The notes beneath the pieces are model-generated. The model was given only the letters and a program-made list of their open reading frames with translations, made no database searches and was not told the DNA's origin. 63,822 nt of DNA from positions 1 to 63,822 of the forward strand of contig JBEWZL010000182.1 in NCBI GenBank assembly GCA_045837725.1, read 5' to 3'. The position numbers and the translations under genes were made by a program. Each line of letters opens with the position of its first letter. The first letter of the stretch is position 1. Shown here one piece after another: positions 1-62,268 of this stretch. Source of the stretch: Vermamoeba vermiformis (Eukaryota).

Positions 1-609
1 GGTGCAGCCACCTTGCCTGTGGGCCCGATGTCTGATCGAAACTTGCTGCGTCAGCCTTCTAACGATGATTTGGCACCAAAAGTCGTTCAAACTGCACGTG
101 AAAGCACCAAGTCAGACATTAAAAAAGAGGTCAAGATCGATCGCGATACACTGAGAAAAGAGAAAGAGAAGAAAAAGAAAGAAGAAGAAGCCGCTGTTGT
201 TGTGCAAACAAAAGAGTCCCCGCGACAACCAATCAAAGACAACGAGAGCGATAAGAGTGACAAATCGAACAAGAGTGACAAGAAGGCTCAATCGGACAAA
301 GACGAGGATAAGGGCAACACGACGCCAAGAGATGAAAAACCGTTGTCCAAGTCCGAGCCTACAGCTATTGCTAGTCCTTCGCTTGAGCAGCCAAAAGCCA
401 GGCGTCATCAGCACAACAAATCTGAAATGCCCTCGCGACCTAAACCCTCGGCAGGAGCGGCCAAGCGCAGACGCGAGTTCGATACCGCGACTGCTTTGAC
501 CTTATTTGGTGATATGGAGAAGGTCTTGGAGGCACCGCCTAGCGAAAATGCCGAAGTGAACGATCTGAAGGCACTTTTGGGTGATGTTGACATTAAGTTC
601 AATTTGTAA
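1..609 (+). CDS. 3' end (last exon) of a gene entering from the left; low-complexity K/E/S/D-rich protein, function unknown
   Basis: Frame 1 is open from base 1 to TAA at 607-609, followed by AT-rich 3' sequence. No recognisable domain in the visible part. Confidence 0.75.
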   Translation, partial: GAATLPVGPMSDRNLLRQPSNDDLAPKVVQTARESTKSDIKKEVKIDRDTLRKEKEKKKKEEEAAVVVQTKESPRQPIKDNESDKSDKSNKSDKKAQSDKDEDKGNTTPRDEKPLSKSEPTAIASPSLEQPKARRHQHNKSEMPSRPKPSAGAAKRRREFDTATALTLFGDMEKVLEAPPSENAEVNDLKALLGDVDIKFNL

Positions 610-31152: not shown

Positions 31153-31959
31153 GCAGATTCGAACTAATTTTTTGTTTAATCGGAAGGTAAACCAAATATA
31201 AATTTACTATTCAAATAATACTGACGAGCGATTTAAAGTCTTATCGGCTCGCAAATCACTTAGCGCGTTGATAATTTAACAAATTTATTGTGCCGTGTTG
31301 GTTGCAACACAGCGAGGCAGGAATTTGCTGCCATGTGGCGGTTATTGATTTAGTTTGTATTGTAATGATGATGAGAACGCCACAAGACGCAGCGAAGTGG
31401 ACCAACAGGCCACGGTCCTTCCTTCCGTCCACTGGGACAATACCCACAAGGCCTTCCACGAGCATGGCTCTTACATCTTCATTCCTCCTCAAGCCTCAAC
31501 AAAGGGTCTAGATTCGGAGTCAGTGCGCCATGTACGAACTATTTTTCGGTGCAGGAGTGTGCGGATGCAAGGCCGTGTTTCGAACGATCTGATCCCATTC
31601 AACCAAGCAGTGCCATTTCAAACTCTTTCTCGACCATCCGAAGCGAGGCAACTTCGTCATTCCTTGCCCCGCGTGAACACTTCCCTTGCCTGTAACGTGA
31701 ATCAACTACCACGTGGCTTTGTTTCGTGCACATCTGTCCGAAATTCTCAGGCCAAAAAATGGTTTGATTTTATTATGTACTTTAAAAACAAGCTAACACA
31801 ATGGTCATATTAGTTAATTGACGCTTAGAAACATTATACAGCAAATGTCCCTTTCCTGGGCACGTGTTTGAATTGTGAACCTGACGTGTTGGCGACCTGT
31901 TGGAGAATTGAATCGCCTGCCCAATTTTCCAAGCCATTATATACTCAAAAATATCTAGA

Positions 31960-33349
31960 ATGGAACACAATTCGCACCTAGACCGGGCGTTTCGATCTGC
32001 CGAGTTTCACAATCCGCCCCAGGTTGCGATCGGTAATTATTTTAATTTGCTATTGTTAATAGTACAAAATAAGTTATTATATATTACATATTTATTTAAA
32101 TACTTACTAATTTTGTTCAGGAGAATCTTCGTCGTCAAATCTGGATGAAGACGAATTTGATTGCTATGGTTTCCGTAAAGCTCTCAGTGATTATAAATCA
32201 AACCCAGCACTACTCGTAGACATGACGGGCAAAAATGACGACAAAATTCATTCCTTCATCCTGCAGGTAAATCACCCGCAAGCAATGGAGCTGATGCAGC
32301 CCTTCGACGTTTTCAAGCGATACGACAACGAAGTAGAACCAGGCATTTGGATTCAAGAGACGAAGTTCAATTTCACAAGGGCGTGGATGAAACGGTGTGA
32401 TTGGGATAATTGTGGTGGACCTGATGACCCGGAAGCTTGGGTGAAGGAAAAACAATACATGGTCAATTATTGGACGCACAAAACAATTAAATTCCTCAAA
32501 TTTCGCAAATATTTTATCCCAGACAAGCCATGGGCCGTTTATCTGGTGTTTGAGGAGCTGCCGGATCTTGGCGCGCCAAATAAAAAAGCGAAGTTTACGC
32601 GTAAGTAATACGATGGCTGGAAATTACGCTGAATACTTACTCGTTGATATGCTAGACCAATCTCCTTCCAACCAAATCAATTACCAAATTCAAACGAGTT
32701 CCCATTCGAGCCCAGTTACTAGCAATTCATCTTATTTTAGCCCCAACTGCAATGGAACATTTATGGACGTAAATAAGGAGCAGAATGGTTTCGAAGCAGT
32801 CCACAACGCAGCGCAAGAGTCTCTGTTCCTCTCAAAGTAATGAAAATAATACTAACAATGGCTACTATTATTCCGATCAATCAACGGAGTATCAGCAGCA
32901 TCAGGACACTTCTCAGATTGATATCAATCTGCACAATCAAGTGCTGGAGAACACTGAACGATCAAAGCGAAATGAAAAAGAAATTGAAGCACTGAAAGAG
33001 CAACAAAGACAACTAGCTCAACAGCACGTAGCTTTGGATATTAAGACAAATTCAAACACCAGAGAGATCGAAGAATTGACCGATAGCGTTGCAAAATTGG
33101 AAATAGCCAACCAAAATATGATAATTAAAGCAATAATTACTCTGTTACGAAACAATAATGGTACTTTCGTCGCCAGCATCAAAACTCGCTTCGAAGGTCA
33201 GAGAGTCGCTGGAAGATGAATCAATTACTACAATGGCTGTAAACAGAATCCTCACCACTATTTTGGAGAAACGAGGAGTGATTACGAGAAGTTCTGACAG
33301 AACAACTTGGATTTTGAACGAACAAGCGGCGAAGAAGTTCGACCTTTAA
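31960..33349 (+). CDS. Putative nucleic-acid-binding protein (paralog 1): unknown N-domain, NLS, S/N-rich linker, coiled coil, winged helix; two apparent +1 frameshifts
   Basis: Introns at 32033-32120 and 32601-32655. Collinear with the intact gene at 36987-38398. The reading frame shifts near 32770-32840 and at ~33165, so this is a pseudogene or an assembly error. Confidence 0.65.
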
Positions 33350-33552
33350 AATTTAGAATAGAATTATGAAAGAATTATGTGCGATGCTGGATTTAGTTTT
33401 TTTGTCGTACGACTATTGTACTTTTTCTGAGTCCTTCATGGCAAAAATAAATTAAGTTAATGACCGTTGTTTAGACACAGATTTTTCGTGGCGAAAACAC
33501 AACACCTTGATTGTTATACTTATTAAGGCAACGCTGACACATAAAAGAAAGA

Positions 33553-35247
33553 ATGGAGGTACTACTTTTGGTGTCCGAACAAATTTTCGATTTGTAAATT
33601 ATTCAAGTTTTTTATTCAATTATTAATAAATTCATGAATATGCTAATAATTACCTCTACATAGGTTTATATACCGTACGACTGTTGGAATTTGATTTTGA
33701 ATTATTTACGTCAAGATCTGGAAAATGAATGTAAAAATAGCTCGTATTACTATTATAAGCCTTTAAATGCGTTGGACGTTTGGTTATTAATTTTACGCTC
33801 TACATCGCATAATATTCAGCAAGCTATTGAAAAATACCAACGTGAACACGCGTTAATTTTTGGATTTCACCAAGGCGCTGTAACTCATTACCTCAGCGCT
33901 AAAGGCTATCTCTCATGCTTGAAATACTTCGTAATGGACTTGAAATATTATATTGGAAAAGAAGCTGCCGATGAAGCTGCAGCAGGAGGTCATTATGAAT
34001 GTTTGAAATTTATTGGCGAAGTAAATCCGAAGATTAGTTGGAAGTACGATTCAGCTCAAAAAGCGGCAAATGGTGGAAATCTATTATGCTTGGAATATTG
34101 TCATAACCGTGGTGCACATATATCACTGCCTGAAATTCAAACTGCAGCGTCGTTGGGCAATCTGGAAATGGTCAAGTACATCCGGCCTCACGTCGATCCA
34201 AGTTGCGCCAATTATTATACTAGCTTTGCAGCATATAAAGGTCACTTAAATATACTCCAATTGCAGTTGAAAGTGGCGATGGATTGGCTGAAAATGTTTG
34301 CCTGCGAGCTGTTGAAGGAGATCACTACGACTGCTTGGTCTACGCGCATCAAAATGGCGGAATTATCGATGAAAATTGCGTTCATGTGGCATTAAAATTT
34401 GGTGCTATTCGGAGCGCTATGTATTTACTCGAACATACGAAGATCACACCGGGATCCTCAGTAGTTTTCGGCGATTATGCTCGTGGTGGCCCCGTTATGA
34501 ATATAGACCTGCTAAAGATGTTGCATAATCAAGGTGTTATTTGGGGCGCCTACACCTGCACCACAGCGATTTTAAGAGGATCCGTGGAATGCCTTAGATT
34601 CGTTTTAGAAACTGGCGCATCGAAGAACGACTATGCGCTGTACAGACAGGCCATTAGTAATAAGAAGGATTGGCTTGACTACTTCAAGGTCCTAGAAGAG
34701 CATAACGGTACGTACTAATTTAAAGTTTTTTTCTTCGAATTATAATTTTTTTTGTACTGGCTCGATTCACTATCCTTTAACGCTCAATAACTAATCGAAT
34801 ATCATATTTATAGTTCCCCACGACCCCAAGGAATATATTGACTGCTCTTACACTGGCAATCTTGAATGCATGATTTATCTGTACGAGACGGTACGATTAC
34901 CGTGGCCAGAGTACATGAGCTCCAGTCTCGTGCTGCATAATAACTTCAAGTGTCTTGAATATGCCTATGAGCATGGCTGCCCTTGGAGCGAAGATACCTG
35001 CCGTGCCGCGGTGGAAAGATCAGATGCGGATCTAAAATTCTTGAAGTACGCACACGAGCACGGCGCACCATGGGACGAAAGAGTGACTTTTTTGGCTGCT
35101 TCAAGGGGTCGTTTAGAGATGTTGAAGTACGCACACGAGAACGGATGTGGATGGAACCAAAAAACGATCCGAGAAGCGAATTTCCGAGGTCATAAGAGGT
35201 GCGTGGAATATATGCAGCAAGAAGGCCTTAGATTGATCAACACGTAA
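33553..35247 (+). CDS. Ankyrin-repeat protein of the GCPW type with an F-box-like N-terminus; one apparent 1-nt deletion
   Basis: ATG GAG, intron, then VYIPYDCWNLILNYL. Repeats such as AAAGGHYECLKF, CLEYAYEHGCPWSEDTC and GRLEMLKYAHENGCGW. The frame changes at ~34262. Confidence 0.8.
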
Positions 35248-35862
35248 TCGTGGGATGATTGAGAATACGCGGAAGTAAGACCATTGCCACGCCAGGAGGT
35301 AACCGTTTGCTGCAGCAGTTGAATTAGTGTGATCCGCATAAACCTAATCTTCAAGCAGCATATTATAGGTCATCCTATGTTGCAAAGCCGTAGTGATTTA
35401 TTATGAAATACCTGCTCCGTCAAGATCCATGCAAAGTTAAGTTATTCGTCTTTTATACCGTCTTTGCCAAACCAGTGAATGAGCCCTCAATGAACCAATC
35501 AGCGAGCTTATCAATCATGAACCAGTGGGATTTAGCAGTGATGCGATGCGCAAGAACAGACCACCGCGTCAGTCAAGCTTTGTTACACCGAGCACGTGTA
35601 GGTTGTCAATCGTTTAGAGTTGCTGTAAGGATGGTTGGTACTAAAAATATGCGAAAACGAGAATCGCGTCCGCGGACAGAGATAATTTCAGCGAATTCTC
35701 TCAGCGAATTCTCATTTGTCCCTTTCGTGTCATTGCATTAATTTTTGCTCGTGAAAATTTCCACGGTCAGTCGGGCACTCCATTGTTCACTCAACTTACT
35801 GGACAAAACCACAACACTGTTCCCGCTAAGCACCAAAAGCTACTCGCTCCTCTCCGCCCCTA

Positions 35863-36509
35863 ATGCAAATTAATGGTATGGACGTCAATTGAATAGCGAA
35901 AGAATTGATTTTCTAATCAAGTTTTTTAGCAGATCCGGACAACGCTCCCACATCCTTGGAGTATTACCAAGGCTACATGTGGTTGGCTCAGATACTTGAC
36001 ACCGATCCAAGAAGTTACGACGAATCTACCTTCTGGATAATTGCGAATGCCTTGAATCGCTACGGTGCGTTGTTGTCCGGTCAATTTGCATATAGGAATG
36101 AGGAGCGTTATGCTTTTTACGTGCATCAAACGAAGCAGAAATTTGGTAAGCAAGGATGCAGACCTTTTCCTTTCCGCAATTGCTCCAGGCACAAAGGATA
36201 CGATTCGGAAGAAGGAGGGTGCCAAAAGCGCATTTATTCTTCACCGCGATACCGATCCGTTGTTCTCTATCAATACTGGATCGGCGCGAGACACAAATCC
36301 GATAACGAGGGCTATTCTTTACTCGTTATTTTGCCTTCCTCACGTGCTGGTAAGTAATGCCTGTATATAAGACCTTTAATTAATACTTTTCAGTCTCTAG
36401 ACGTCGTAAGAATCTTCTCAGCGCTGAATCTCCGACACTTGTGCCATCGATCGAGTCTGATTTTGCTCGGTGTGACCTCAATGATCTGTTCCCCGATCTA
36501 GATGCCTAA
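35863..36509 (+). CDS. Small three-exon protein, possibly a divergent member of the 31960/36987 family (N-domain, basic motif, acidic tail)
   Basis: ATG at 35863. Introns 35876-35929 and 36350-36393 give one frame ending SRRRKNLL...DLNDLFPDLDA. FPFRN and YQYWIG echo FPFED and YKYWVG of the 36987 gene. Confidence 0.6.
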
Positions 36510-36986
36510 GTCATATGGTCGGCATGCTTCCTTATCAAATTCTTGCTTTATTTAATGCTCGCAAAAAGCATTTTCTTTTTGTACATACTCTTTTAACGTT
36601 AGATCTAAGTCGGTCAATCTCTGTTTTTCCTTTCCCCTTGACTTACGCACTATACTAAGTCATGCAGAAGGGTTTTTTAATTGATTGATCAATAAAAACG
36701 ATTCTTTAATCAATTCATTTTCCATGGTCGACAAAATCCGCTTCAATGCCACTAAGTTGCGAGAATTTCCCGCCCGCTTTTCATACAAAGATACGCATAT
36801 ATGATAGAGATCTCCTAAATATCGACATGTTTAGATTTTAGGCCATTTTTAGATCAAGTAAAAAATTGTGAATCACAACACGGCAGCACGGCGTGTAAAA
36901 TATCGATTTAATAGAAACAAAAATGGACCGAATTATAATAACACGAATAATATCCACGTGTAACACGAGTGTGCGCCCGATCGACA

Positions 36987-38398
36987 ATGGAGCAGAACAG
37001 TGATTACGAAGAGGAAGAAAATATACTTTGGAATGGCTCGCAGGGTTTTAATATTAGCAATGGTATTAATTATTCCCATAATTATACTATAATTACGCAA
37101 TTATTCATAATTCTAAAGGATCAGAACCAAGTGAAGTTTTCGAAATTGACTCAAGTAAGGATTAAACGTAATGATAAGCTCTTCAGGTCTAACTATTATG
37201 ATCAGTTATATCGCACGATAGCTCTCCTGATGGCTTTCAATATCCCGACGAGAATAATTCAGCTCCGTCAAACGAATCTTCAAATCCAACAATCCCAGAA
37301 GAGTACTATCAATGGCTTCAATATCTAGATAATTGTCGTGGCAATCCTAAGCAAATAGCTGACCTGAATAGCACCAAAGCCTCTGCTCAGCTCGGTAGCT
37401 TGGTTCATTTCATCAATCTGCCCGATTTCGTTGCGATTCTTCAGCAGTATTATGGTTTTACAGAGTACAATAATGAACTGCATGGTATATTTATTCAACC
37501 TGCCATCAAAGAATTCAAGCAGGCACATGGATTTGACGAAGCCAACTTTCCGTTTGAAGACGCAGGTGGTCCTCAAAAAGGCAAACTGGCCAAGCATGGC
37601 TACATATATAAGTACTGGGTTGGTAAAGCAGACAACTCGTACAAAATGCGCAAGTTCTACAAGGAAAATGGGTTTGCTATCTTTGTCGTCTTTCGAGATG
37701 CGACTAGCCCCAATTCAAGCCCCTCCGCAAGCTCCGAAATCAAGCTTGATACTGAACCTGTAAATAAGAAGCCGCGAGTTGGAGGTAAGCGAACGACTTT
37801 CAGATGAGCCAAAACTAAAATTGATAAATTGCATCCAGGCAACAGCCCGTTCCCAAACTCCGAAGCTAGCAGCGAGGTATCATCCCCTACGAGGCTGTCC
37901 AATACCCAACCTACGTACAACACTGGCTCTAACACCAATTACTATGGAACTGGATCGCCGACACCGACTAATTATAGCCAACAACCAACGCAACCTATTG
38001 GCGCTAATAATAGCAACAATTCACCTGCCAATCCTTTGCATTCCCCAGAGCACTTAAGCAATCGCATTGACTCGTTGTCTGACCGCGTTGACGATCTGAC
38101 TGGCCGCATGATGAAAGTGGAACTGAACGACTCTAAGAAGAGTGTTACTGTGACCACGCTTCAACGCAGACTAGGCGCATTAGTACTGCAAGTGCTCAGA
38201 GAGAACGGTGGTCGACATCAGCTGGGCAAGCCTCTTGCTACGAAAGTCAGAAAACTCTTCGGTGGATCGCTGGACACAAAAACCGTTAATAACTTGTTGT
38301 ATACTGTACTCGAACCTCTTGGTATTGTCCAATTGCAGGACAAAGAGTGGGTCTTGATCGACGAAGAGAAAGCAAAAGAATTTGAAAAACGGGAGTAG
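36987..38398 (+). CDS. Putative nucleic-acid-binding protein (paralog 2, intact): unknown N-domain, NLS, S/P/N linker, coiled coil, C-terminal Z-alpha-like winged helix
   Basis: Introns 37063-37118, 37155-37205 and 37785-37838 give one continuous frame. KKPR motif. C-terminus VLQVLRENGG...TKTVNNLLYTVLEPLGIV...KEW. Confidence 0.75.
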
Positions 38399-38731
38399 AT
38401 CTCGTTCTCGCGGGATTGCTCGCTTGAATTCTGTTGCATTTTGTCATTTTCTTTTTTTAGAACGTTTTTTTTTAATGCTCGCTAGTTTTTTGTGCCTTGT
38501 CGCTTTATTATGTTCTCCTTGTACCGTACAGACAAACGCACCTTTTTTATAGCGATCTAATGCCTTGTAAATAAACCTTCAACAAACATTCTAACTAGGT
38601 TAGGTATCTCCTATCTTTAATTGTAGAAGTCGCTTCAGGATCCATTTCGGTCAGATCAAAAAGATGCTGCATCAATTTTCATCTGAAACGAAAACTAGTT
38701 CGTGTTCAAATTGTTTATTATTTACAATTTA

Positions 38732-39772
38732 CTATGTACAATAGAGGTCTTCATTGACTTGCAGGAATTCTTCGTAGCCAGTACGCGGTGGTGGAAATTT
38801 CGAAGCTTTTAACATCATAGTGCTCGTATTGTTTCGTATTCGAGGCAAGAATACTTCGATATTATTCTGAAAGCACGCAAATATCAATAATTTAGATAAT
38901 TGCGTCAATTCTGACGGAATTATTCGAAGTCCTGCTTTGCTCACATCCAGCCGTTCTAATCTCGTTAATTTCAGCAAATTAATCGGCATTCTGTGCAATG
39001 GATTGCCTCCCATAGAGATAACTTCCAAATTAGTCATATTTTCCATATCAGGCAGATCCTTCAAAGCGTTGTACGCGATCCGCAACGAAGTCAAATTTCT
39101 TAATTTGGTAATCGAGTGCGGAATTTCTTTCAGCTTATTCATCGTCAATTCCAAGCCCATTAAATTGGTCAATTTTTTGAATATGTATTCGGGCACTTCT
39201 GTCAAATTATTGCTCGCGGATGCAAGTACCGTCAAATTTGTTAGGCTCCGCAGGTCCGGTAATTGATCCAAATAATTATGTCCAAGATCTAGTGCCACCA
39301 AATTCGTCATATTACTAATTTGAGACGGAATTTCTCCTCTTGTGCAGATCGACAGAGAATCCAGATTTGTTAACTGTTCGAAGCCTTCAGGAAATGTTCT
39401 GATTGGTGCAACTATTTGCAGCTCTCTTAAGTTGGTTAATAGTGTGATTTCGTTGGGCAAAGAGGTGAAAGCGCCTTCAAGTTCGACGCGCGTCAGATGG
39501 ATCAGATCTCCAAGGGCTGCTGGAGGAGATTGAGAGAGATAATTCAGCTCTAATCTGCCACTGCCTTTAACGGCGTCCTATAGTAATATAATTATTAAGC
39601 AATGGCGTAATTATAAAGAGGAAACATTTCTGTAATTTTTGAAAAATAATTGTTAAAATATTTAACGAGCCAGATCCAGCTTTAATAACAAGCTAACACA
39701 CTAAACCTAGAATATATGAATTTTTAATAATATTTACCTCCATTCTTGTTTTAAGGTGACGTCTTCTTCCAT
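38732..39772 (-). CDS. Leucine-rich repeat protein
   Basis: About nine LxxLxLxxNxL repeats, e.g. LTNLMGLELTMNKLKEIP. Short first exon MEEDVTLKQEWR. Confidence 0.9.
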
Positions 39773-45071: not shown

Positions 45072-48000
45072 ATGGGAGACGCCAGTGTAAGTTGAATTAT
45101 TAATTATGGATGCAGAAAAAGCAAATTTGGAAGCAGTTCAGAGCCATGGCTGATTTTTAGATCAAATCTAATATTGAATATGCTACGCTTTCTTTCAATG
45201 GAGAGTTAATATTGCAATAATTAATTATATCGCATTAATAACACTATTATTACCAAAAACGCGAGCGGCGTAAAAATTATTTTTGGAATTTCAATCTGAC
45301 TGCGAGCAAATCTTTATCAATAGCCCAATAATTAAATAACAATGAATATTGTAATTTAAGATATGTACTTTATTCGAGGCATTGTATCATTAATCTGTAC
45401 CTCCTTTCTGAATATTATTGTTCCTTTTCGTAAACTTCCCATCCGTTTCGAAATTGCCGAGTACTAACAGCTTTCGATTATTAGGTACGCGTTATTTGCC
45501 GATTTAGGCCAATTAACGCTCGAGAACAACGAGAGGAGGTTGATGATGATAAGTCTAAGGCCCAAATCAAATTCGTTAACACGGATACGATCGACATCAT
45601 CCAGCCGGGAAAGGAGAAATTGAACTTTACTTTCGATAGAGTCTTCCATTCAAATGCTCTTCAACAAGATATCTTTAATTTAGCAGCTAAAGATACCGTG
45701 GAGTAAGTTCTTTTTCGTTTTGCGCATCTTGCAAGTTACCGTTACAAAAAGTCGAACTTAAAGTCTTTATTACGAATTACTGCAAAGATTATCGTTATTG
45801 CACGAGTATAGGCTAATTTTACCTTATTAGTGATGTACTGCAAGGTTACAACGGTACAATCTTTGCTTACGGTCAAACTGGTGCCGGCAAAAGCTTTACT
45901 ATGTTTGGTCCCGATATTTCAGAGGATGATATGAAAGGTACTTACCAATACTATATTATCCGCCTATTAGCATCTCTAACAATGGATCTGCAGGTATTAT
46001 TCCTCGTGCATGTTCGCACATCTTCCAGCACATTGCCGAAGACACCTCAGGCACAGAATACACGATCAAGTGTTCGTTCTTGGAAATTTACAAAGAAGTT
46101 ATCAGGGATTTGTTGAATCCTAAGGGTAACAACTTGAAAGTCCGAGAAACCCCGAGCAAAGGTGTTTGGGTCGATGAGCTAAGCGAAGTGGTACGTAGAG
46201 CTATGATTTATATTATAGGCATTGTACTAACGTGGTTGTAGTTTGTTACATGCGAACAAGAAGTGTTGGATCTGATCAAGCTCGGAGAGAAGTTCCGAGC
46301 AGTCAGCAGCACGCAAATGAACGCAGTCAGTTCTCGCTCTCATAGGTACGTTATCTATCCTTCACCCACGTTTCAAATACAAATATCTTACGCGTTTGCA
46401 GTTTGTTCATCTTGTCGTTGACGCAAAAGTCACGTGATGGCACTACTAAAATGGGCAAGTTGAACTTGGCTGATTTGGCTGGAAGTGAAAAAGTCGGCAA
46501 GACTGGTGCTTCTGGCGAGACCCTCGAAGAAGCCAAGAAGATCAATCAGTCCCTCTCGGCACTCGGTAACTGCATCAACGCGTTGACGAAGGCTAAGAAA
46601 GGTCACGTGCCTTATCGTGACAGCAAGTTGACTTTCATTTTGCGAGAGTCGCTCGGAGGCAATGCAAAGACGACTTTAGTTATTGCTTGTTCTCCTCATG
46701 CTGTAAGTAGATCCAGCTTTCCATTGCTGCAAGTACTAACCTTGCCGTGTAGTTCAACTTGGAAGAGACCATCTCAACATTGCGTTTCGGTCAACGAGCC
46801 AAGTCCATCAAGAACAAGGCGAAGATCAACCAAGAGCGCAGTGTGGCCGAATTGGAAGCTATTATCGACAAGATGCGTGCAGAGATCACAAAGCTTCGTG
46901 CGTACAATGAAGCTTTGGAGCGCGAGCTTGTTGCTGCTAAGGGCTCAGACTTCAACATTGACGAGTTCAGGAAGAAGTTGATGGGTGACTTGGCCAAACG
47001 ACAGCAACAGGTCGAACCGCCAACTTCTCCGCGACCGAGAGGAGACGGAGATGACGACGCTTCATCAGTTGCATCAGACGACTCAGACGCTAGCAACACT
47101 AACTTGGACGTGCCTTCGCGCGAACCTTCGAGCACACAGTTCTTGTCGCCGATGCCTACGAAGACACGACCCAATCTTTTGACGCCTCAGACGCCTAGCA
47201 CCCCAACACATTTTGGCGGCAATTCTATTCCTGCAACACCTTCATCCCCCTCACCGTTCGCGTAAGTATCGTTCACTATACAAGCAGCCCTTCTAATAGT
47301 ATCTTTGTAGTAACTTCGACGCTTATGATCCTATGGCTATGATCGAGATGCAATTGGCGTACGACAAGCTGAAAGAAGAAAAAGATATCCAGATCCAGGA
47401 CTTGAAAGAAGAGCTCTCGCAGTTGCGCGAAGAACTTGAACGTGCAAACGCCCAACAAAACACTGAAGAGACTAAAAGCGAAGACAACTCGTCGTTGGTC
47501 GCGCAGCTTGAGTCTCAAAAGCAAGAATTTGAAGCGCACAAGAGCAAGATGGAATACGAAGCGAAACAAAGTGCGTTGCAAATGGAGACTGCGACGTCTA
47601 GTTTGGCAATTTTGAAAGAAGACAATGAAAATCTTCGACAGACGCTGGACAAGACGACGGGCAAAGTGAGCGAGTTGAGCCAAGAGAACGAGACTTTGAA
47701 AGAGCAGAAGAACGAGCTGGAGCTCAAGATTAAGACTATGGAGAGCCAAGTCCAACAGCTTAATCAACGTGTCTCGAGCTTCGAACAAAATGGTACGGAT
47801 CCGAGTTAAAACATTCAATTTTTTTGACGGTTGTACTAACTCTATATTTCAATAGCCACCGCGCATGCCCAAGAAAAACAAGAGTCGCTTAAACAGCAAC
47901 AAGAGAAAGACGAAAACATTCAAAAGCTGCAAGAGTCGATTGCGGTCTTAGAAGACGATTACAACGCCTTGACCGGTGAAATGAACGAAGCGCAAGGCAA

Positions 48001-50339
48001 AATCAAAGTATTGGTACGTGATAAAAAGTCATCTAAGTAATGACTGTGCTAACTTTGTTACGTAAGATCCAAGAAAAAGAATTGTTAGAGACTGCCTTGA
48101 CCACTGCTAAACATACGATCTCGGTGTTAGAGCAGTCACGTGCTGCCGCTGAAAAAGACAAGTCTGTTCCGGGAACTCCTCGCAACGATTTGTTAGATAC
48201 AGCCAACAAGTACGTGATGCAATATTAATACGCGTATTAACGTTGATTCTAACTGCTCTATGCAGGAAAATATCGGATCTGTCGAATTCTTTGGACCAAC
48301 AAGTCTCCGAGAACTCACTTTTGAAGAAGAAAGTTTCTTTGCTCGAAACCGATGTGGATAAACTGAAGGCTGAGAACGCGAACAAAGAACGCAAAATGGA
48401 ACAAGAGCGACAAAAGTCTAAGACTGCAAATGACACGTTGAAAGCGCTTAAGAAAGAGTTGAACGAGATGAAAATGGTTCAGCAACAGATTGCCTTTGAC
48501 AGCGAAAAGACGTTGAAAGAGGCCGAGATCAAATTGTTGACCGAACAAAATCAACGATTGAGCACACAGACTGACTTGGAGCGTAAGTCAAAAATAATTT
48601 CAGATCTACTTGCGCCGTGTACTTTTCACTAACGACCTTTGCAGGACTAAAACGCGTTCTTGTTGAACGAGACTACGAAGTCAAACAGCTGAACGAGAAC
48701 TTATCTAAAGTCACGTTGTCGTTCAAAGAAGAATCAGCCAAACGCGCCACGACCACGAAGCAACTCGACGAGAATTCAAAGCGACTAACAGAGCTGGAAA
48801 AGAACATTGAGTCTTTGCAAGAAGAAAACTCAAAGTTGAAAGCTATGTTGAAGAATAATAAGAACAATACCAGCGCTAAGCCTGCAGCCACGACGGATAT
48901 TAGCGGAATTTCAAAGCTGAGCGAAGCCGAGAAGGTAAGTTTCATGAACGAGAAGATCTACATCCGGATGCAGATCAACTTTTTTTGTTAGATCTATGTG
49001 CTTACGATGGTGATATTGTAGGAGACATCGACTGCGCTTACAGAGTTCGTGCGTCGATTACAACAACGTAGCGGTCGTGTCGTCAGGCCAGTGCAAAGCA
49101 GCAGCCTTAGCAGTGGTCAAAACAGTCCGCAAGTACCAGCAAATAATAACGCCCCGAGTGGCACTATGGACTCAATTTTGCATTTTTGGAAAGAGGTACG
49201 TTCAATAGCTATTTTTTTATTATGCACACTTTCGTAGTGAGCTAGGCAACAAATTTTCATTTATTTTTTTCGAACGAACGAGGTTCTTGTTGATTTTTTT
49301 CACTCGATTTTTTGGGCTTGGGCGTCACTGCGATAATTATGTATATTATTATATTGACTAGGGCTAACTAATATTGAGTTCCAATATTAAAAAAATTAGA
49401 AGGATATTTTTTGCAGAGGTTTCCGGCGCCTAACAAAAACGAGTTCAAATTCAACAAGAACAACTAAGTTCACCTAAAAATTCAAATATTTATTCCAAAA
49501 ATAGCAAAAAAATCAAGCAATTTTATTTATTCGTTTTTTGTTTAGGCGCCGAAACAACCTGAAAACAACAAACAAGTTTTCACGCAACAACAAATGTTTT
49601 TATTCTCCGATTTCTAAAACTCCGAGAGACCCGCAACCAACGCCCTGAATAGCCCGTGTTAATAGTGACCGACCAACCCTCCCATTTATTTATTAGAAGA
49701 TTTTGAGTTAACCGTCGCGAACGGGATCCGATCGAGAAAATTTAAATATTTTCTTATGGATCCGTTCAACGCGGTTAATTTCAGTCTTCAATTACAACCA
49801 TTGTAAATTACTACGCCTTATTTTTGTGAAAAGTGTAATATAGTCCGACTTTCCATAATTGTCTTGTAAAATAAATCATTGAGGCAATTTCAAAAAAGCT
49901 AATAATAGATCTAAATATTAACTAATATGGACTGGTCTTATAATCATTTAGTTATAACTTTATCGGATCTAACATAAACTTTAATTAGGACGTTACAGAC
50001 ACGAGCAATATGCCTGTTGAAAAAGAAGGCTGGCTGACGTTGCAAGAGCAAGAAGACAAGTTCAAAGTATGGAAGAGGCGATGGACAGTTATTAAGGCCA
50101 ATAGAATGTTTTATTACGTCGATCGGCACGCGAAAGATCCGGTTTCGTTTGTTAAACTGAACGGATGTAAAGTTCAACGTGCGGATGAGCAAACGAGAAA
50201 ACCAAATTCATTTCTCATCGTTCATAAGGAGAATGAGAGTATTCAACCAGCGAATTATATCTACACAAATACAGACGAGCAATGTCAAGATTGGATCGAC
50301 TTCCTAACGAAAAAATTCAAAACTCTGGAGGGGAAGTAG
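45072..50339 (+). CDS. Kinesin heavy chain (kinesin-1-like motor), long coiled coil, C-terminal PH domain
   Basis: [17 protein letters not shown]-loop [34 protein letters not shown] and [13 protein letters not shown]. Coiled-coil exons follow. The last exon EKEGWL...WKRRW...CQDWIDFL is a PH domain. Confidence 0.93.
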
Positions 50340-55074: not shown

Positions 55075-55453
55075 GGAAAGCAATGCGTACCAGCCATTTG
55101 ACGAACCACTAGTTTTTCCTTTTAAATAAATTGTTAATGCAAAGATTTAAATTTTATTTTTTTTTTGGTTTTTGTTGGACGAATTTCTTTTCTAAACTCC
55201 ATGCGCGTTGTAGAAGTACGATCCAGTGTTGATCGAGCTCGTACCGAAACAAAACTTCTTAGAGCTCATTTGGCATTAATCTATCGGATCGGACAACCGC
55301 GCTTTCATCATTGACGTTGAGTGCTTCGCTATTACTTCTGTTAGAGCTCCTTCAAGGTACTCGTTATGTGATGAGACAAATATCTCGTGTATATCTCGTG
55401 TACTTTATATAAATAAATGACCGTTCACACTACCACAGAACGGGTCATAACAT

Positions 55454-55466
55454 TGGCGCTCCCACC
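55454..55466 (+). promoter_or_regulatory. Candidate primer-binding site TGGCGCTCCCACC
   Basis: Lies 1 nt after ...TAACA and is complementary to a tRNA 3' end ...GGGAGCGCCA. It is preceded by AATAAA (55411-55416) and an imperfect U5-like hairpin ATGACCGTTC/GAACGGGTCAT. Confidence 0.65.
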
Positions 55467-55491
55467 TGACGCCCCTATCTTATATTTTACA

Positions 55492-56982
55492 ATGGATTGG
55501 AATAATACGGATTTGTTTTCTCCGCGTACCCGAGATGTGATCTCACGATTCGCGCAACCAGACCCAAACATCGACGGAGATAATTCCTCAGAGCATGGAG
55601 ATGATGGAAATATTATTTCGAGCGATAATACAGCGAGAGAACTCGAATTTCAAACACCAACAAAATTAAATCCAACCGGTACAAATAATTTTTCCGCTGG
55701 TACAACTGTGGGAAATAATACCACGACAGCAGAAACAGTTCCAGAGACATTAGTGAATATTTCTGAAGAAGAAGAAATTGATATTGCCAGCGAAAGTACT
55801 CCCGCATCTGCATTAAATCTGGAAGATTATCGAAAACAATACATGGACTTGTATAATTTACACCAATTGGTACGTCAAGAAAATGCTCAATTAAGAAACG
55901 ATATTACTCGCATCCAAAGCGAAAACAACCAACTTAAGACCGAAGTCAAAACACTCAACGATAAATTGGCTGGCAATCGTCGATTGAAGGACGCTATCGC
56001 AGACACCAATTGCAAACCGTTCGATATGGTTAAACAAAAGGATAGCACCGCGTGGTTGGAATCGTTCTACAGCCTTGTCCAATTTCACAAGTTATCAGCG
56101 AAGGAACAGTTGCTCATATTTGGTCGTAAATTGGCTGGTGGCCCTTTGAAAGCATGGAATGGAGCATCACAAGAGTTCAAACAAGACATGGTATCAGCTG
56201 CTAAATGGCTTGCGACAAACTACATCGCTCCTGAAAGCAACATGGTCAAGCAAAGCGAAATATCGAACGAGAGATGGGACCCTGAAAAAGAGACTTTTAA
56301 TCAGTTCTACACTCGCTTCAACTCTCATTTTGCATCGTACCCGTCGTCAGATCCCGACAAGATCAAGTATTTGCTCGATGCCCTCCCAGAACACGTGAGC
56401 ACGCATGTACGTACGAACATGGTCTCGATGATGACAGATTACTCGCGACTCTCAAGCGCAATGGTCAATTTACCATGGAGCATTATCATCAAACCGAAGA
56501 CTGCGAAAACGAACGTGACTGGAACCGTGAATGCTGTAACTCAGGTAAACGATACCGAGACTACTCAAAATAATAACAATCAAATCGATGACGTAAATTT
56601 CATTTCTACCCGTGGTAAGCCAAATTTCCGAGGTAACCCCAACCGAGGTAGACCGTTCCCTCAACGTGGGAAACCAAATTATTCGCAGCAATACAATGAT
56701 AACTGTGGTAACCAACGAGGTTCTTTCAATCGTCGTCGATATAACAATAACAATAATCAACAACAACAAATGCCTCAAAATCAAAATCAATACCTCCCTT
56801 TCGTACTTCCTCAAGCCCTTCCGTTTCAACCATTTTACACGTTACCAAACATGAATCCTAACTTTAACGGCAATCCAAATCAAACATATAATAATAACAT
56901 GATGCCGAACTTTAACGGTAACCCAAATCAACAACAAAACAACAATGGAAAGAGGCAGGGAAATGGCAATCAGAGCAGTTAG
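55492..56982 (+). CDS. gag: Gypsy Gag (coiled coil, capsid-like region, RG- and N/Q-rich tail)
   Basis: Intronless ORF. The first ATG after the PBS is 55492. Capsid-like pattern WLESFY...L.GGPLKAW...ETFNQFYTRF...YLLDALP. No CCHC knuckle. Confidence 0.85.
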   Translation: MDWNNTDLFSPRTRDVISRFAQPDPNIDGDNSSEHGDDGNIISSDNTARELEFQTPTKLNPTGTNNFSAGTTVGNNTTTAETVPETLVNISEEEEIDIASESTPASALNLEDYRKQYMDLYNLHQLVRQENAQLRNDITRIQSENNQLKTEVKTLNDKLAGNRRLKDAIADTNCKPFDMVKQKDSTAWLESFYSLVQFHKLSAKEQLLIFGRKLAGGPLKAWNGASQEFKQDMVSAAKWLATNYIAPESNMVKQSEISNERWDPEKETFNQFYTRFNSHFASYPSSDPDKIKYLLDALPEHVSTHVRTNMVSMMTDYSRLSSAMVNLPWSIIIKPKTAKTNVTGTVNAVTQVNDTETTQNNNNQIDDVNFISTRGKPNFRGNPNRGRPFPQRGKPNYSQQYNDNCGNQRGSFNRRRYNNNNNQQQQMPQNQNQYLPFVLPQALPFQPFYTLPNMNPNFNGNPNQTYNNNMMPNFNGNPNQQQNNNGKRQGNGNQSS

Positions 56983-57023
56983 ACGTGGACTCTGAGCTGC
57001 TCGTTAATTTAATTCAGTCCACG
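56958..57023 (+). promoter_or_regulatory. -1 ribosomal frameshift signal (slippery heptamer plus H-type pseudoknot)
   Basis: G GGA AAT is in gag phase (56958-56964) and followed by an 8-nt spacer. Stem 1 is GAGCAG/CTGCTC and stem 2 is CGTGGACT/AGTCCACG. The -1 frame is open into pol. Confidence 0.85.
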
Positions 57024-58950
57024 AAATTACCTTTCGTAACGGTCAAATTATATAACACTAATATTCAAGCATTAATTGATACTGGAGCATCAGTCTCTGT
57101 TATCAATAACAATTTCATTAATAAGTATCCCAATATCATTTTATACAACACGAGACAATATACATTACGAGTTGCAAACTCTGAGATTATATATGCGAAC
57201 AAATACGCGCAATTCAATATTGAGATCAATGACGTATCGATCCCTGTTACAGCATTATATATCGAGAATTTCAGATTCGATTTATTACTTGGAATGGACA
57301 CGCTCACTACCGCTAAAGCTGAGTTAATGATTGCGAACAAAGTTGCGTGGACAGCAAACGAGATTAATATGATTGATTGTAGTAACGATAAAGAATTTGA
57401 AATTGCGCTCTATTCATGTAATACGATTAAAGTGCCAAGTCGCTCAGGAATTATTATTCGATGTAAATTTAGTAAGGAGAACAACTTGAAAGTAGGTGAC
57501 AATTTGTTGATCGAGATGTCTGATTCTCGGCATCGCGCAGTTGTTGGAAGACAGATGGGGGTTGTACGTCCGAACAACACTGTCGATGTGTTCGTGACTA
57601 ACTCTGAGAACCGAAACACTTTAGTTTTGCACAATAGTCTAGTAGCGCGAGCCACGCGAAACTTTAGTGTATGTCTAGACCAATATGGTTTCGAAATTAT
57701 TCTAGACGACAATTCGGCAGAGAATAGAACGAATAGGACTAGAACAACGGATTCAGATGATGATGCGTCCGCTAATACCCCTCCCGTAACATCGCAAAGT
57801 CTCTCGAATCCAATGTTCCGTGGGAATGCGGAAAGGACTAAGGTTATCCTCGCGATGGAAAAAGTACATCAACAGGATCGTGTCTCCCTTCCTGCGTCAC
57901 AGTCCCCTCAAATTAATCCGAAATTAAGTCGCAATGAAATCGAGGCACTAAAAGAATTCATTAAAGAATTTGAAGACGTATTCTCGTCCGAATTAAAAAC
58001 TACAACGGATAAAGTAAAACACGAAATTCAAGTTACAGACGGCCCTGTTAGGTCTAGACCATTCTCTAAATTATCGCCGTCAGAGCGTAAAGAAATAGAT
58101 GAATTTGTCCAACGCATGTTAGACAGTCAACAAATACGACCATCTAGTTCTCCGTGGTCGTCGCCTGTCTTATTAGTAAAAAAAGAAAGACGGAACAAAA
58201 CGTTTTTGCATTGACTATCGTAAATTAAATGCTGTAACAAAGAAGGATGTATATCCTCTTCCGAGGATCGATGACGCGTTGAATCATTTGTCGCACATGA
58301 AATATTTTACAACGTTAGATCTAATTTCTGGATATTATCAAATTCCAATTCGCGAAGAAGACAAAGAAAAGACTGCTTTTACAACACATTCGGGTTTATA
58401 CGAATTTAACGTCATGCCATTTGGTTTGACCAACGCACCTGCTACTTTTCAAAGATTAATGAACATGACATTAGCAGGATTAAATTGGAAAACTTGTCTT
58501 GTCTACATAGATGATATATTAGTTTTCTCGCGCACTTTCGACGAGCACATGAGTAGATTACGCGAAGTATTCGATCGCCTTCGCGGATCAAATCTAAAAG
58601 TTAAACCGTCAAAATGTAGATTCGCTTATTATGAAACAAATTATCTCGGGCATATTATTAGCGAAAAAGGAATTAAACCAGACCCGGATAAAATTAGAGC
58701 AATTTCGAGTTGGCATGAAGATCGCATTAAAGAAAGTGTCACTCAAGTGCGCTCATTTTTGGGTATTTGTAATTATTATCGTAGATTCGTTCGTAATTTC
58801 GCGCAGAAAGCTCGCCCATTAACGGATTTATTAAAGAAAAATAATACTTTCGAATGGACTGCAGAATGCTCTGCAGCATTCAATAGATTAAAAACGTGCC
58901 TAATAAGTCAACCAATTATGCATTATCCTGATTTTAACAAACCGTTTATT
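56985..58950 (+). pseudogene. pol: Gypsy pol (protease-RT), disrupted by +1 A at 58178-58184 and by the Ngaro insertion
   Basis: Removing one A from the A7 run restores LVKKKDGTKRFCIDYRKLN. Homology stops after PDFNKPFI. Confidence 0.9.
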
Positions 58951-59155
58951 CATGCAGCGACATTGCCCGAAGCAATTAGCGTCGGAATATTCGAATTCAC
59001 AGCGAGTGAAGAATTCCGACATTGCCCTGGTTGACAAGTGACAGGTGTCACGTGACTTGCCGAGGAGAAAACGAAGCAACGCTACAACCGTCATTGTCGA
59101 CGTTTTAGCAAACAGAGCACCACAACAAGCTTGGTTTGTTAAATTATTTTTTCTT
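58947..59155 (+). repeat. Split direct repeat A1 (209 bp)
   Basis: Identical by eye to 63481-63689. Confidence 0.95.
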
Positions 59156-59212: not shown

Positions 59213-60691
59213 ATGTCTGCCAAGTCAAAGCGCGAGTCCAAAGCTGCTGTTGCCACTGCCAGTACACTCACGAACATCATTTCGAAGCCATCAACCAACG
59301 CAGCAATGCGCGAATCCCTTCAACTGATTGTCAACTGGGACGTAGTGAACAAACTTGAGTCAACGAGCGAACTTTCGTTCTACGCTCAAATGGCTCTTGC
59401 TTGCGTCATTGCGGACGAGTTTGACATCCTCAAGTCTACCCGAGCTCCGGACGATTCAGAACAAATAGAAATTGCCGCGGCCGCTCAAGAGTCGAAATCC
59501 GCTCTTGCCCAACTGTCAGATCACTGCGATGAATTTTTCACTCAGGCTGCTCTCTTAGCTGAGTCTGGAGTTAATACTGACAAACCTCTTCGCCTACATC
59601 ATTTGAAAGCGAATGAGAAACTTAGCGTTACTCTAGATTCGGACAAGATCAGTGAACTCACCAAGGATCCAGAAGTCAAGAAAGTTCTTTCCGATATTCT
59701 GCCCCACATTGCATCTACCCCGACGAAGAAGAAGCCTTCTCCCGTTTCTACTTCAAATTCTTCAGATCCCAAGAATAGAAATTCCCCGGGAAATTCTCAG
59801 GTCCCTGGATCCACAGCCACGACAACGTCACTCAAGCACCTCGATGCCAAAGCTAAGTCAATCGTTCAATCTATCAATGCAGATCATCGAGCCCGCCTCA
59901 ATAATTCTTCAAAAATTTCGAATTCTAACAACTCCGAAATTTCTGCGCAACAAGCTAACGATGTGTCAGAAAGCGATGACGAGTCTCCCCCCAGTCAAAA
60001 CACTCCTACTCGCTTCATTGGTAACCCTCAACGCGGAGTGACAGCCAGTCAAGCTGGCTCACCCATAGCGATTGCCACCCCGATGTACGCTACATCCACA
60101 GGTTCGGTCGCCTCTGTCTACCTGCCAAGGAACTTTAGTGGTCTTAGAGGACGCTCTATCGGCTCTGGATCCCGCCCTTCAGACGTAGTCGCCTACACTC
60201 GAAGCGCCACAGCGATTGGTCGTATGCTAGCTCACGAGAATCCCACCTTTGATCGGCTGGAATACACTGACTACGTCAATTGGGTCATTGATCTCTCGGA
60301 GAACCATACCTGGGACTCTGTGATGAGTTATGACGAAGAGTTTCGTCAGCTAGTAGAACTGGGCGAAATCTCCTGGTCAAATCGCCCAACCGACATCGAA
60401 CGTGCCGTCTTGAAACAGAAGCCACCTGCCACTTACGCCTCAACTCGCGGGAATGGTTCCGGCAACAAGCGCTTCAATAGAGGTTCCCAAGCGTCGTCCT
60501 CTCCCCCTGTCGACGGTTCTGCCTCTGGAATCTGCTTCGACTGGAATCAAGGTCCATGCTGGCATCAACAGCGCTTCGGTAAATGCAAATATCGTCACGT
60601 CTGTTTGCAGTGCCAACAAGATCATCGCTCCATCGACCACCCAAACGGGAATGGATCTCAGCCTCAGTCAGGGGGCACCCGGAACACCTAA
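59213..60691 (+). CDS. Ngaro ORF1, Gag-like with a C-terminal Cys/His zinc finger
   Basis: The first ATG after A1 is 59213. Motif TWDSVMSYDEEFRQ, then CFDWNQGPC...CKYRHVCLQCQQDH. Confidence 0.85.
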   Translation: MSAKSKRESKAAVATASTLTNIISKPSTNAAMRESLQLIVNWDVVNKLESTSELSFYAQMALACVIADEFDILKSTRAPDDSEQIEIAAAAQESKSALAQLSDHCDEFFTQAALLAESGVNTDKPLRLHHLKANEKLSVTLDSDKISELTKDPEVKKVLSDILPHIASTPTKKKPSPVSTSNSSDPKNRNSPGNSQVPGSTATTTSLKHLDAKAKSIVQSINADHRARLNNSSKISNSNNSEISAQQANDVSESDDESPPSQNTPTRFIGNPQRGVTASQAGSPIAIATPMYATSTGSVASVYLPRNFSGLRGRSIGSGSRPSDVVAYTRSATAIGRMLAHENPTFDRLEYTDYVNWVIDLSENHTWDSVMSYDEEFRQLVELGEISWSNRPTDIERAVLKQKPPATYASTRGNGSGNKRFNRGSQASSSPPVDGSASGICFDWNQGPCWHQQRFGKCKYRHVCLQCQQDHRSIDHPNGNGSQPQSGGTRNT

Positions 60692-62268
60692 TTAATGCAC
60701 CCGTCAGCGCTGTAACGTCGCAATACGCCACCTGGGTTAAGTACACTTACTCTGATCATATTAACGGTCCCTTTATGCGTGAGGTGTTTGCCCCAGGTGG
60801 TGGTCTCTCTATTGTTAGCCACGACGTTGCAGTGCCAAGTTCCTTCTTGGCTAACTACTCTAGCGTTGATAACGCTAAAGAAGTCATCGACGCTGACATC
60901 GCCAACGAGCTTAAGCAAGGTTTTATAGCAGCAGTCCCCTTCAAGCCCTTCAAAGTCAACGCGTTAGGCGCCGTGCAAAAGAAAAGCAGTGGCAAGTATC
61001 GTCGCATAACTGACCTTAGCCGCCCTAAAGGTTCTGCTCTCAATGAATCTTTGGGCCCTCCGCCGAAATTTCGCTTCGCTACAATCGATGACGCTGTCAT
61101 GTTCGTCTTCAAACGCGGAAGCAAATTCGTGGTAGCCTCCAAGTTCGACATCAAAGCCGCCTTTCGACATGTCCCTATCAAGTCTAAATTCTGGCATCTA
61201 TTTGGCTTTCAATGGAAAGGCATCTACTACGTCGATCTTCGCATGTGCTTTGGCTTGTCAATGGCCCCTTACGTCTTCTGGAGAATCTCCAACTTCATCT
61301 CTCGCACTGCACAATGCCACTATGACGTCGAGCACAACACTCCTTACATCGATGACTTCTTGTTGCTGTCCGCTGGGGACACGCTGGAAGAAGCCTTTGC
61401 TGCTGCTCGATGCAATCATCAACGCTTCCATCAATGCCTAATCGACCTAGGTTGGCCAGTAGCCGACGACAAGGTCGTCGAGCCATGCACAGACATCACC
61501 TTCTTGGGCATTCGCTTCGATCTGCTGCAACGCAAGCTCTCTCTTCCAACCGAAAAGCTCGACCAAATCTTGACAGAACTGCGCTCTTTTCAGCATCGGT
61601 ATTCGGCCACCAAACGTGAGCTAGAACAATTGGTAGGTAGACTTAACTTTGCTGCGAAAGTAGTGAAAGGAGGTCGTACCTTTCTTCGCAGAATGATCGA
61701 CGAAATCAACACAGTCGTCGATCACAATGCTACGATCGTTCTTTCAGATTGCTTCCGTCTAGATGTCTTATGGTGGCTCAACTTCGCTTCCCAATGGAAT
61801 GGCACTGAAATGATGATCGACCCCAAGCCCGTGGCCTCACCGCGTTTCGTCACTGATGCTTCCAGCTTAGCTGTTTGCGCGGTATTCGATGGTGAATTCA
61901 TCGTGCGGTATAACGACGACCGTACCAACTCTTGGCACATCAACGAACTGGAGTGTCTAGCGGTCTATCTCGCAGCAAAGCGGTGGGCTTCAGAATGGCG
62001 CAATCTCCACATCGTGGTGGAGTCTGACAACACTACAACTGTTGCTGCCATCAACCGAGGATCTTCTAAATCACGTCGCATCATGTCAATGCTTCGCAAA
62101 CTCTTCTGGCTTAGCGCTAAGTTCAACTTCCACCTTACTGCGCGTTTCATCGCTGGTAAAACTAACACTCTAGCGGACGCTGGCTCACGACGAGACTTCA
62201 ATACGATGCTTGACATCGACCCTACACTGTCCATGGTGCTTTGCCCCGAACTCGATGATGACGTCTAG
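60583..62268 (+). CDS. Ngaro ORF2, reverse transcriptase / RNase H
   Basis: KYRRITDLS, KFDIKAAFRHVPI, MCFGLSMAP, YIDDF and FLGI. RNase H motifs TDAS, INELE, ESDN and NTLADAGSR. Overlaps ORF1 in the -1 frame; true start uncertain. Confidence 0.95.
   Translation: MQISSRLFAVPTRSSLHRPPKREWISASVRGHPEHLINAPVSAVTSQYATWVKYTYSDHINGPFMREVFAPGGGLSIVSHDVAVPSSFLANYSSVDNAKEVIDADIANELKQGFIAAVPFKPFKVNALGAVQKKSSGKYRRITDLSRPKGSALNESLGPPPKFRFATIDDAVMFVFKRGSKFVVASKFDIKAAFRHVPIKSKFWHLFGFQWKGIYYVDLRMCFGLSMAPYVFWRISNFISRTAQCHYDVEHNTPYIDDFLLLSAGDTLEEAFAAARCNHQRFHQCLIDLGWPVADDKVVEPCTDITFLGIRFDLLQRKLSLPTEKLDQILTELRSFQHRYSATKRELEQLVGRLNFAAKVVKGGRTFLRRMIDEINTVVDHNATIVLSDCFRLDVLWWLNFASQWNGTEMMIDPKPVASPRFVTDASSLAVCAVFDGEFIVRYNDDRTNSWHINELECLAVYLAAKRWASEWRNLHIVVESDNTTTVAAINRGSSKSRRIMSMLRKLFWLSAKFNFHLTARFIAGKTNTLADAGSRRDFNTMLDIDPTLSMVLCPELDDDV

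Follow-up and report, generated by a model that had tools for sequence, protein, structure and literature searches.

A lineage-restricted gene family of a Vermamoeba-like amoeba encoding candidate nuclear nucleic-acid-binding regulators, some with a C-terminal winged helix

The WRKY/GCM1 clan is found in plants, fungi and animals, and the transcription-factor repertoires of Amoebozoa beyond Dictyostelium and Entamoeba are poorly charted. Amoebae of the Vermamoeba type are natural hosts of giant viruses, and a number of these viruses themselves have genes for Zα proteins. In the available parts of the Zα literature, these domains are reported from metazoans, some algae and dinoflagellates, and viruses, and the one Zα paper found to mention amoebae does so, in its available text, only as hosts of giant viruses. 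No amoebal Zα protein is described in the Zα papers, supplementary tables not covered, and a literature search found no paper combining Vermamoeba and Z-DNA. Here we describe three neighbouring genes, named A, B and C, in a 63,822-nucleotide (nt) stretch of Vermamoeba vermiformis DNA (assembly GCA_045837725.1, contig JBEWZL010000182.1, positions 1 to 63,822; the window hereafter), which form a lineage-restricted paralog family of a Vermamoeba-like amoeba and which, on balance, most likely encode nuclear nucleic-acid-binding regulators. The family and its pairing of domains appear undescribed in the literature searched, supplements of Zα surveys apart.

The window has about 40% GC and is eukaryotic, with short GT-AG introns. 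Gene C is complete, with an open frame and three introns of 56, 51 and 54 nt, all GT-AG and all phase 1, and its parts are as follows.

36987-38398, plus strand: gene C, complete, 416 amino acids (aa); exons 36987-37062, 37119-37154, 37206-37784 and 37839-38398.
37289-37702, plus strand: core of the N-terminal globular domain (N-domain), predicted by the model and its fold matches to hold four helices and then five strands, with the basic hairpin YKYWVGK...KMRKFY.
37766-37780, plus strand: basic KKPRV motif, resembling a nuclear localization signal (NLS), 4 nt ahead of a phase-1 intron.
37841-38044, plus strand: low-complexity linker rich in S, N, P, T and Q, disordered, with a predicted local distance difference test score (pLDDT) below 50.
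38045-38128, plus strand: short amphipathic helix, a possible coiled coil (residues 69-96 of P0002, low confidence).
38156-38389, plus strand: C-terminal winged helix, a1-b1-a2-a3-b2-b3 plus a final helix, isoelectric point (pI) 9.5.
38288-38302, plus strand: NNLLY in helix 3 (an NxxxY motif), with N381 and Y385 of the 416-aa protein.
38348-38350, plus strand: Trp of strand b3, W401, preceded by D-K-E, with prolines absent there.

Sequence variation in a related strain, represented by a water metagenome (X4), shows gene C exons with two in-frame deletions of 9 and 3 nt, both in the linker (37987 and 38005), and 1-nt indels at 37179 and 37809 that fall inside introns, which is the pattern expected of a working gene. 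Among the variants listed, changes in the folded parts of B and C are mostly synonymous, and those in linker and tail mostly non-synonymous. The gene C linker evolves fast, with deletions and several non-synonymous changes in X4, while both domains are kept.

Gene A repeats the architecture of gene C, and is composed of the following parts.

31960-32032, plus strand: gene A exon 1, with the start codon; it ends in phase 1 and is followed by an 88-nt intron (GT donor at 32033, AG acceptor at 32119-32120).
32121-32600, plus strand: gene A exon 2, with the N-terminal globular domain, ending in the basic motif NKKAKFT beside a phase-1 intron.
32656-33349, plus strand: gene A C-terminal half, with an S/N-rich linker, a long polar helix and a winged-helix tail, spread over three frames.

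The paralogy of A and C is clear at both ends of the proteins: their N-domains share 40 of 157 residues (25% identity, E 8e-12) and their C-terminal tails 20 of 56 (36%, E 9e-8). A first-pass annotation of this DNA had proposed the shared architecture, which is borne out with gene A read through two frame changes as assembled. The motifs it had listed for the first domain (NP....D, N.P, F..Y.NE..GI.IQ, GGP, Y..YW, K.RK and A..VF) are all visible in the alignment of A and C, and the basic motif that it had noticed beside a phase-1 intron occupies the same alignment column in A (NKKAKFT|) and C (NKKPRVG|). The family alignment keeps NKK.R throughout as a conserved motif, and nuclear targeting through the KKPRV motif may be predicted from the sequence. 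A coiled coil had also been announced in both genes; the helix of gene C does have hydrophobic residues at 7 of 8 a/d positions in its best heptad register, but it is short and modelled with low confidence, and the longer helix of gene A has only 9 of 20 such positions hydrophobic. Pairing through this helix would be conceivable; a homodimer prediction for residues 60-185 of the exon-4 product gave a score of 0.02, which is not evidence either way.

Between A and C lies the smaller gene B.

35863-36509, plus strand: gene B, 182 aa; exons 35863-35875, 35930-36349 and 36394-36509, the last one starting at 36394 and not at a later AG.

Gene B encodes a distant copy of the N-domain, a basic SRRRK patch and an acidic/hydrophobic tail. 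The earlier suggestion that this third gene has only the first domain plus an acidic tail is upheld in its layout, with the last exon starting at 36394, whereas its homology to the other two is weak by direct comparison (BLASTP E 0.010 against C and 0.009 against A). A comparison by hhalign of a profile of four B-like sequences with one of eight A/C-like sequences gave a probability of 71% and E 3.7e-5 over 69 columns, spanning the YNNE...FPF...GGPQ...YKYW...AIFVVF core, so that gene B is probably, not certainly, the third member of the family. All seven introns of the three genes are phase 1, with lengths of 44-88 nt.

Two DNA runs and two RNA runs were aligned to positions 31900-38450. RNA reads fell only on gene B, at 36061-36498 (95-99% alike; 85-92% run on into unlike sequence), and since they fit only partly they would come from a diverged strain or a paralog. 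A close homolog of gene B is transcribed in the strain of the RNA runs. The RNA consensus before 36396 runs in frame into the SRRRK patch and fits the 36349|36394 junction within two differing letters. Two other joints, 36281>36393 and 36285>36396, were considered as introns and rejected; they have no GT-AG ends and are read as partial fits of diverged reads. Support for the splicing of A and C comes from a single source, the contiguous transcript-derived homolog P0009.

The distribution of the family is narrow. Within the window, tblastn matched only genes A, B and C. HMMER, run in full over 1,835,955,588 representatives, yielded five proteins at E<=0.001, one of them a Vermamoeba vermiformis transcript, and a word-indexed search with the family profile yielded nine, three of which (P0014-P0016) are B-like and were matched by a profile that included gene B. 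The whole architecture is also present in P0009 (456 aa, a Trinity transcript of Vermamoeba vermiformis), in P0012 (469 aa) and in the metagenome locus L001, and P0013 (308 aa) has part of the N-domain followed by linker, helix and winged helix. No ortholog of gene A was found in the protein collection at near lengths. Searched with the winged-helix profile, the longer proteins returned only three members, all of this family, in keeping with the first-pass remark that no described protein pairs these domains. The order of the genes is conserved as well: on a 2.4-kb metagenome contig (L002) a B-like open reading frame (ORF) at 370-774 lies upstream of a C-like gene at 1432-2372 on the same strand, the first 58% identical to B and the second 55% identical to C, and this order indicates that the adjacency of B and C is older than the split of the species or strains. 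A giant-virus origin was also considered and rejected, as a scan of IMG/VR viral contigs with the N-domain profile only, not the winged-helix profile, gave 281 pattern stretches and no relative among them.

The C-terminal domain is the best defined part of these proteins. As the first-pass annotation had foreseen, it is a winged helix-turn-helix, modelled at a pLDDT of about 90 with a1 at residues 106-121, b1 at 125-127, a2 at 130-140, a3 at 146-157, b2 at 163-166, b3 at 169-172 and a last helix at 175-183, and it is basic across the family (pI 9.2-9.5). The more specific label of a Z-alpha-type domain had been given to it too, and this raises the first alternative to be weighed, which is a sharper version of the preferred reading and not an exclusive rival: that the winged helix is a working Zα-type domain, through which the family senses or reads Z-DNA or Z-RNA. 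CG-rich promoters could be the targets of such proteins, or else, in an amoeba serving as host to giant viruses, nucleic acid of foreign origin. In the available text of the corresponding survey, Zα domains are recognized by NxxxY in helix 3 together with pPxW in the wing (Romero et al. 2024). In the present family, five of six members have NxxxY in helix 3 (gene C, P0013, P0012, P0009 and L001), gene A having Thr for Tyr, and all six have the Trp of the beta-wing in b3. Generic DNA-binding winged helices are not known to carry this NxxxY...W signature. Model residues N150, Y154 and W170 fall on ZBP1 positions 46, 50 and 66, listed as contact residues in the available part of PMC10523160, and W170 falls on Trp60 of PKZ; both placements are range arithmetic, made by end offset of the aligned ranges (model 104..174 to chain 7..70 for ZBP1). 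Among the fold matches to the winged helix, Zα domains give the closest superpositions and the highest identities: ZBP1 at rank 11 has a Z-score of 9.4, a root-mean-square deviation (rmsd) of 1.8 Å and 24% identity over 63 aligned residues, PKZ at rank 15 has a Z-score of 9.2, an rmsd of 1.2 Å and 27% identity over 59, and both I73R and ADAR1 Zβ score 8.4. In BFVD, rank 2 goes to ORF112 of cyprinid herpesvirus 1 with 28% identity, and ranks 3 and 35 to phage entries bearing the name 'Z DNA-binding protein', each of these matches having E 0.03 or weaker; Foldseek gave no winged-helix match at E<=0.001 in PDB or BFVD.

Against this identification, the prolines of pPxW are absent from all six members, whose wings read D-K/D/N-E-W, G-D-E-W or R-T-T-W. 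The Lys four residues ahead of the Asn is kept in one of five C-like members, the others having a Lys one residue later, and the Arg after the Asn is absent. Loss of the Lys in question, Lys34 in PKZ, sharply reduces B-to-Z activity. Pfam z-alpha (PF02295) matched none of five members at E<=10, and a profile of the winged helix only found no sequence match in the PDB, solved Zα domains included. Moreover, the Zα domains are tied within 1 Z unit with STIV F93, the extended winged helix (eWH) of TFIIIC, PadR and cullin WHB, so that the fold alone cannot single out Zα. Finally, the available text of the same survey states that bacterial Zα-like domains without the key residues do not bind Z-form nucleic acid (Romero et al. 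2024). The Z-alpha label thus keeps the NxxxY and wing Trp on its side and loses the wing prolines and the Pfam match, and a working Zα function seems unlikely. Were it nevertheless real, it would couple recognition of a DNA motif with the sensing of left-handed helices in a host of giant viruses, and a Zα domain in a free-living amoeba would offer a tractable system for Z-nucleic-acid sensing outside animal innate immunity. In its full form, this idea would make gene C and its orthologs the first amoebozoan example of a protein of Zα type that reads Z-DNA or Z-RNA, fused to a CG-1/NAC-like sequence-specific DNA-binding domain and paired by a short coiled coil, with gene B, which has no winged helix, as a competitor or co-activator at the same sites; it is a speculation to which we give rather little credence.

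Returning to the preferred reading of a nuclear nucleic-acid-binding regulator, the N-domain would supply one contact with DNA. Five AlphaFold models were made from an alignment of eight sequences, and the best of them (m8ee3ad4923e8) has a mean pLDDT of 75.1, about 90 over residues 28-165 of P0001. DSSP assigns to it four helices within residues 31-82 and strands at 93-98, 116-120, 133-139, 145-151 and 156-163, that is, helix then five-stranded antiparallel sheet, the trait of a subgroup of the WRKY/GCM1 clan, as seen in this one confident model of five. At lower ranks of the fold search are WRKY33 (Z-score 3.4), the WOPR structures 4qtj (3.3) and 4m8b (3.2), WRKY1 (3.0) and AFT2 (2.9), and NAC chains are at ranks 10 and 21 of a Foldseek search of the PDB in which nothing matched the N-domain at E<=0.001. 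From this model and its weak Z-scores, the N-domain is most likely part of the same fold superfamily as CG-1, and the reading slightly favoured here takes it as a zinc-free alpha-plus-five-strand module of the WRKY/GCM1 clan, within the Ssr4-N/CG-1/NAC/WOPR subgroup. The N-domains of the family have no invariant Cys or His, with 0-2 Cys per domain, and lacking these conserved residues the domain stands outside WRKY and GCM proper. In the model, four invariant Lys/Arg residues (K140, K146, R148 and K149 in exon-product numbering) are located on the b3-b4 hairpin, which may contact DNA, and the half of the domain that holds the strands is basic, with a pI of 9.6 for the 75 residues of it found in P0013.

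A mechanism can be proposed along these lines. The N-domain would present its conserved basic beta-hairpin (YKYWVGK...KMRKFY) to DNA, once the KK(P/R)R motif had taken the protein into the nucleus, and the disordered S/N/P/Q linker together with the short heptad helix would extend the reach of the protein and might allow it to pair. In A and C, the basic C-terminal winged helix would make a second contact with nucleic acid, whereas gene B, with the first domain only, a basic patch and an acidic tail, would act as an activator or a competitor does. Of these elements, the gene models, the paralogy, the narrow distribution, the winged-helix fold and the conserved adjacency of B and C come directly from the data, and the fold class of the N-domain, DNA binding, nuclear localization and pairing are inferred. 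A private family built on a WRKY/GCM1-clan fold would extend the clan into a new lineage and with a new partner domain.

Several observations weigh against this reading. Pfam scans, and searches of the PDB with sequences and three profiles, linked the proteins by sequence to no family of either database. Four of the five N-domain models have low mean pLDDT values (57.4, 47.6, 42.9 and 41.2), leaving one confident model. The whole N-domain is near neutral, with a pI of 6.1-8.0. No RNA read at >=95% fell on gene A or C in the two RNA runs, which come from a diverged strain with the species label of X1, a DNA run of a related strain. Gene A as assembled is not one open frame, a point that the first-pass annotation had not noticed: within 32656-33349, the reading starts in frame 0 and meets a stop at about 32838, goes on in frame 1 until a stop at 33219, and finishes in frame 2 at 33349, so that the C-terminal half needs two frame changes, near 32770-32838 and 33175-33178. 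At the second break, one base, at 33175 or 33178, is missing from both X1 contigs (depth 73.2 plus 81.6 of 154.8), and the removal of one base there places the helix region and the winged helix in a single frame. For the first break the runs list no indel; a GTAAAT..AG intron of 43-49 nt would repair it, and the break could be either such an intron or an indel. Lastly, there is no indication that Ssr4-N and At3g16750, which both belong to the superfamily, bind DNA (Holm 2022, PMC9252788).

This last point leads to a second alternative, in which nucleic acid is bound by neither of the two domains: the N-domain would be a neofunctionalised module for protein interaction, of the kind of Ssr4-N or At3g16750, the winged helix would serve for docking like cullin WHB, and the family would be subunits of a chromatin or ubiquitin-related complex. 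The identity of the winged helix to cullin WHB, however, is only 6-10% against 24-27% to Zα domains. The basic character of the winged helix and of the strand half of the N-domain, and the gathering of four invariant Lys/Arg on one hairpin, also weigh against this alternative, which is improbable. A third alternative holds that the fold call for the N-domain is an artefact of a model built on a shallow alignment, and that its fold is not yet represented. The list of fold matches to the N-domain also includes profilins (3.1-3.9) and roadblock-type proteins (about 3). No PDB match to the N-domain was found by sequence or profile searches, and the ESM Atlas gave for both domains a best score of 0.77, under the lead threshold, and no family name. 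Against an artefact, the best model has a pLDDT of about 90 across the conserved core, its top hits gather in one published superfamily instead of being dispersed, and the first-pass annotation had reached the same superfamily from sequence motifs alone; an artefact seems doubtful. The last alternative, that the N-domain is a true but very divergent CG-1 (CAMTA) member binding CGCG-type boxes, recalls the CG-1 membership once suggested for it and is highly improbable, as Pfam CG-1 (PF03859) had no match at E<=10 in the four exon products or in any of eight family members, and TIG, ankyrin and IQ hits were absent by Pfam from A, B, C and their homologs, which departs from the CAMTA architecture. 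No CAMTA/CG-1 chain was listed by any fold search, an uninformative result in that whether the PDB copy includes one was not established, and the CAMTA3 paper contained no structural description of CG-1 (PMC10417383).

A separate gene lies between A and B, recognized from ORF translations read by eye.

33664-35247, plus strand: ankyrin-repeat-like gene.

Frame arithmetic on the ORFs puts its frame break near 34261, and there both X1 and X4 carry one additional base, at 34261 or 34262. At least two single-base differences in the window thus interrupt frames that relatives keep open, and assembly indels may fairly be suspected. Gene C is followed directly by a leucine-rich-repeat ORF on the opposite strand (38732-39577, minus strand), and further on are ORF pieces of a kinesin-like motor and coiled coil (46346-48632, plus strand). 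Long ORFs that look retrotransposon-like are found at 55417-59034 and 60583-63271, both on the plus strand; the first element resembles the Ty3/Gypsy type, with gag-like, protease-like and reverse-transcriptase parts, and the following one recalls DIRS-type elements in having one ORF like a reverse transcriptase and another like a tyrosine recombinase. All these neighbours were identified by eye.

Compared with described systems, the winged helix of this family has the size of the Zα domains of ADAR1, ZBP1, PKZ, E3L, ORF112 and I73R and, for PKZ and ZBP1, an rmsd of 1.2-1.8 Å and 24-27% identity, and its spacing of 16 residues from Tyr to Trp is that of ZBP1. It differs from them in its wing, where the prolines are absent, and in the basic residues flanking the Asn, which are shifted or missing. 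Generic winged helices such as STIV F93, the eWH of TFIIIC tau138, PadR/MarR and the C-domains of CRP/FNR are 13-20% identical to it. In its arrangement, it occurs as one copy at the C-terminus and is joined to a WRKY/GCM1-type domain, a partner that does not occur in the available text of the Zα papers.

Gene B can be likened, by description only, to At3g16750 of Arabidopsis, which consists of the same fold plus an acidic tail (Holm 2022, PMC9252788); both have a single copy of the fold and then the tail, and gene B, unlike the plant protein, has the basic SRRRK patch ahead of it. As for the N-domain, the nearest relatives by fold would be the Ssr4-N/CG-1/NAM/Gti1-Pac2 subgroup of clan CL0274 (Holm 2022, PMC9252788), which has no sequence match to it. 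Its predicted helical part, with four helices over residues 31-82, is longer than in the Ssr4-N/CG-1/NAC/WOPR subgroup, and the family is known only from Vermamoeba-like amoebae, unlike that subgroup. Finally, the architecture sets these proteins apart: here the N-domain is followed by an NLS-like motif, a linker, a helix and a winged helix, whereas CG-1 proteins are organized as CG-1-TIG-ANK-IQ and NAC proteins have a C-terminal activation region.

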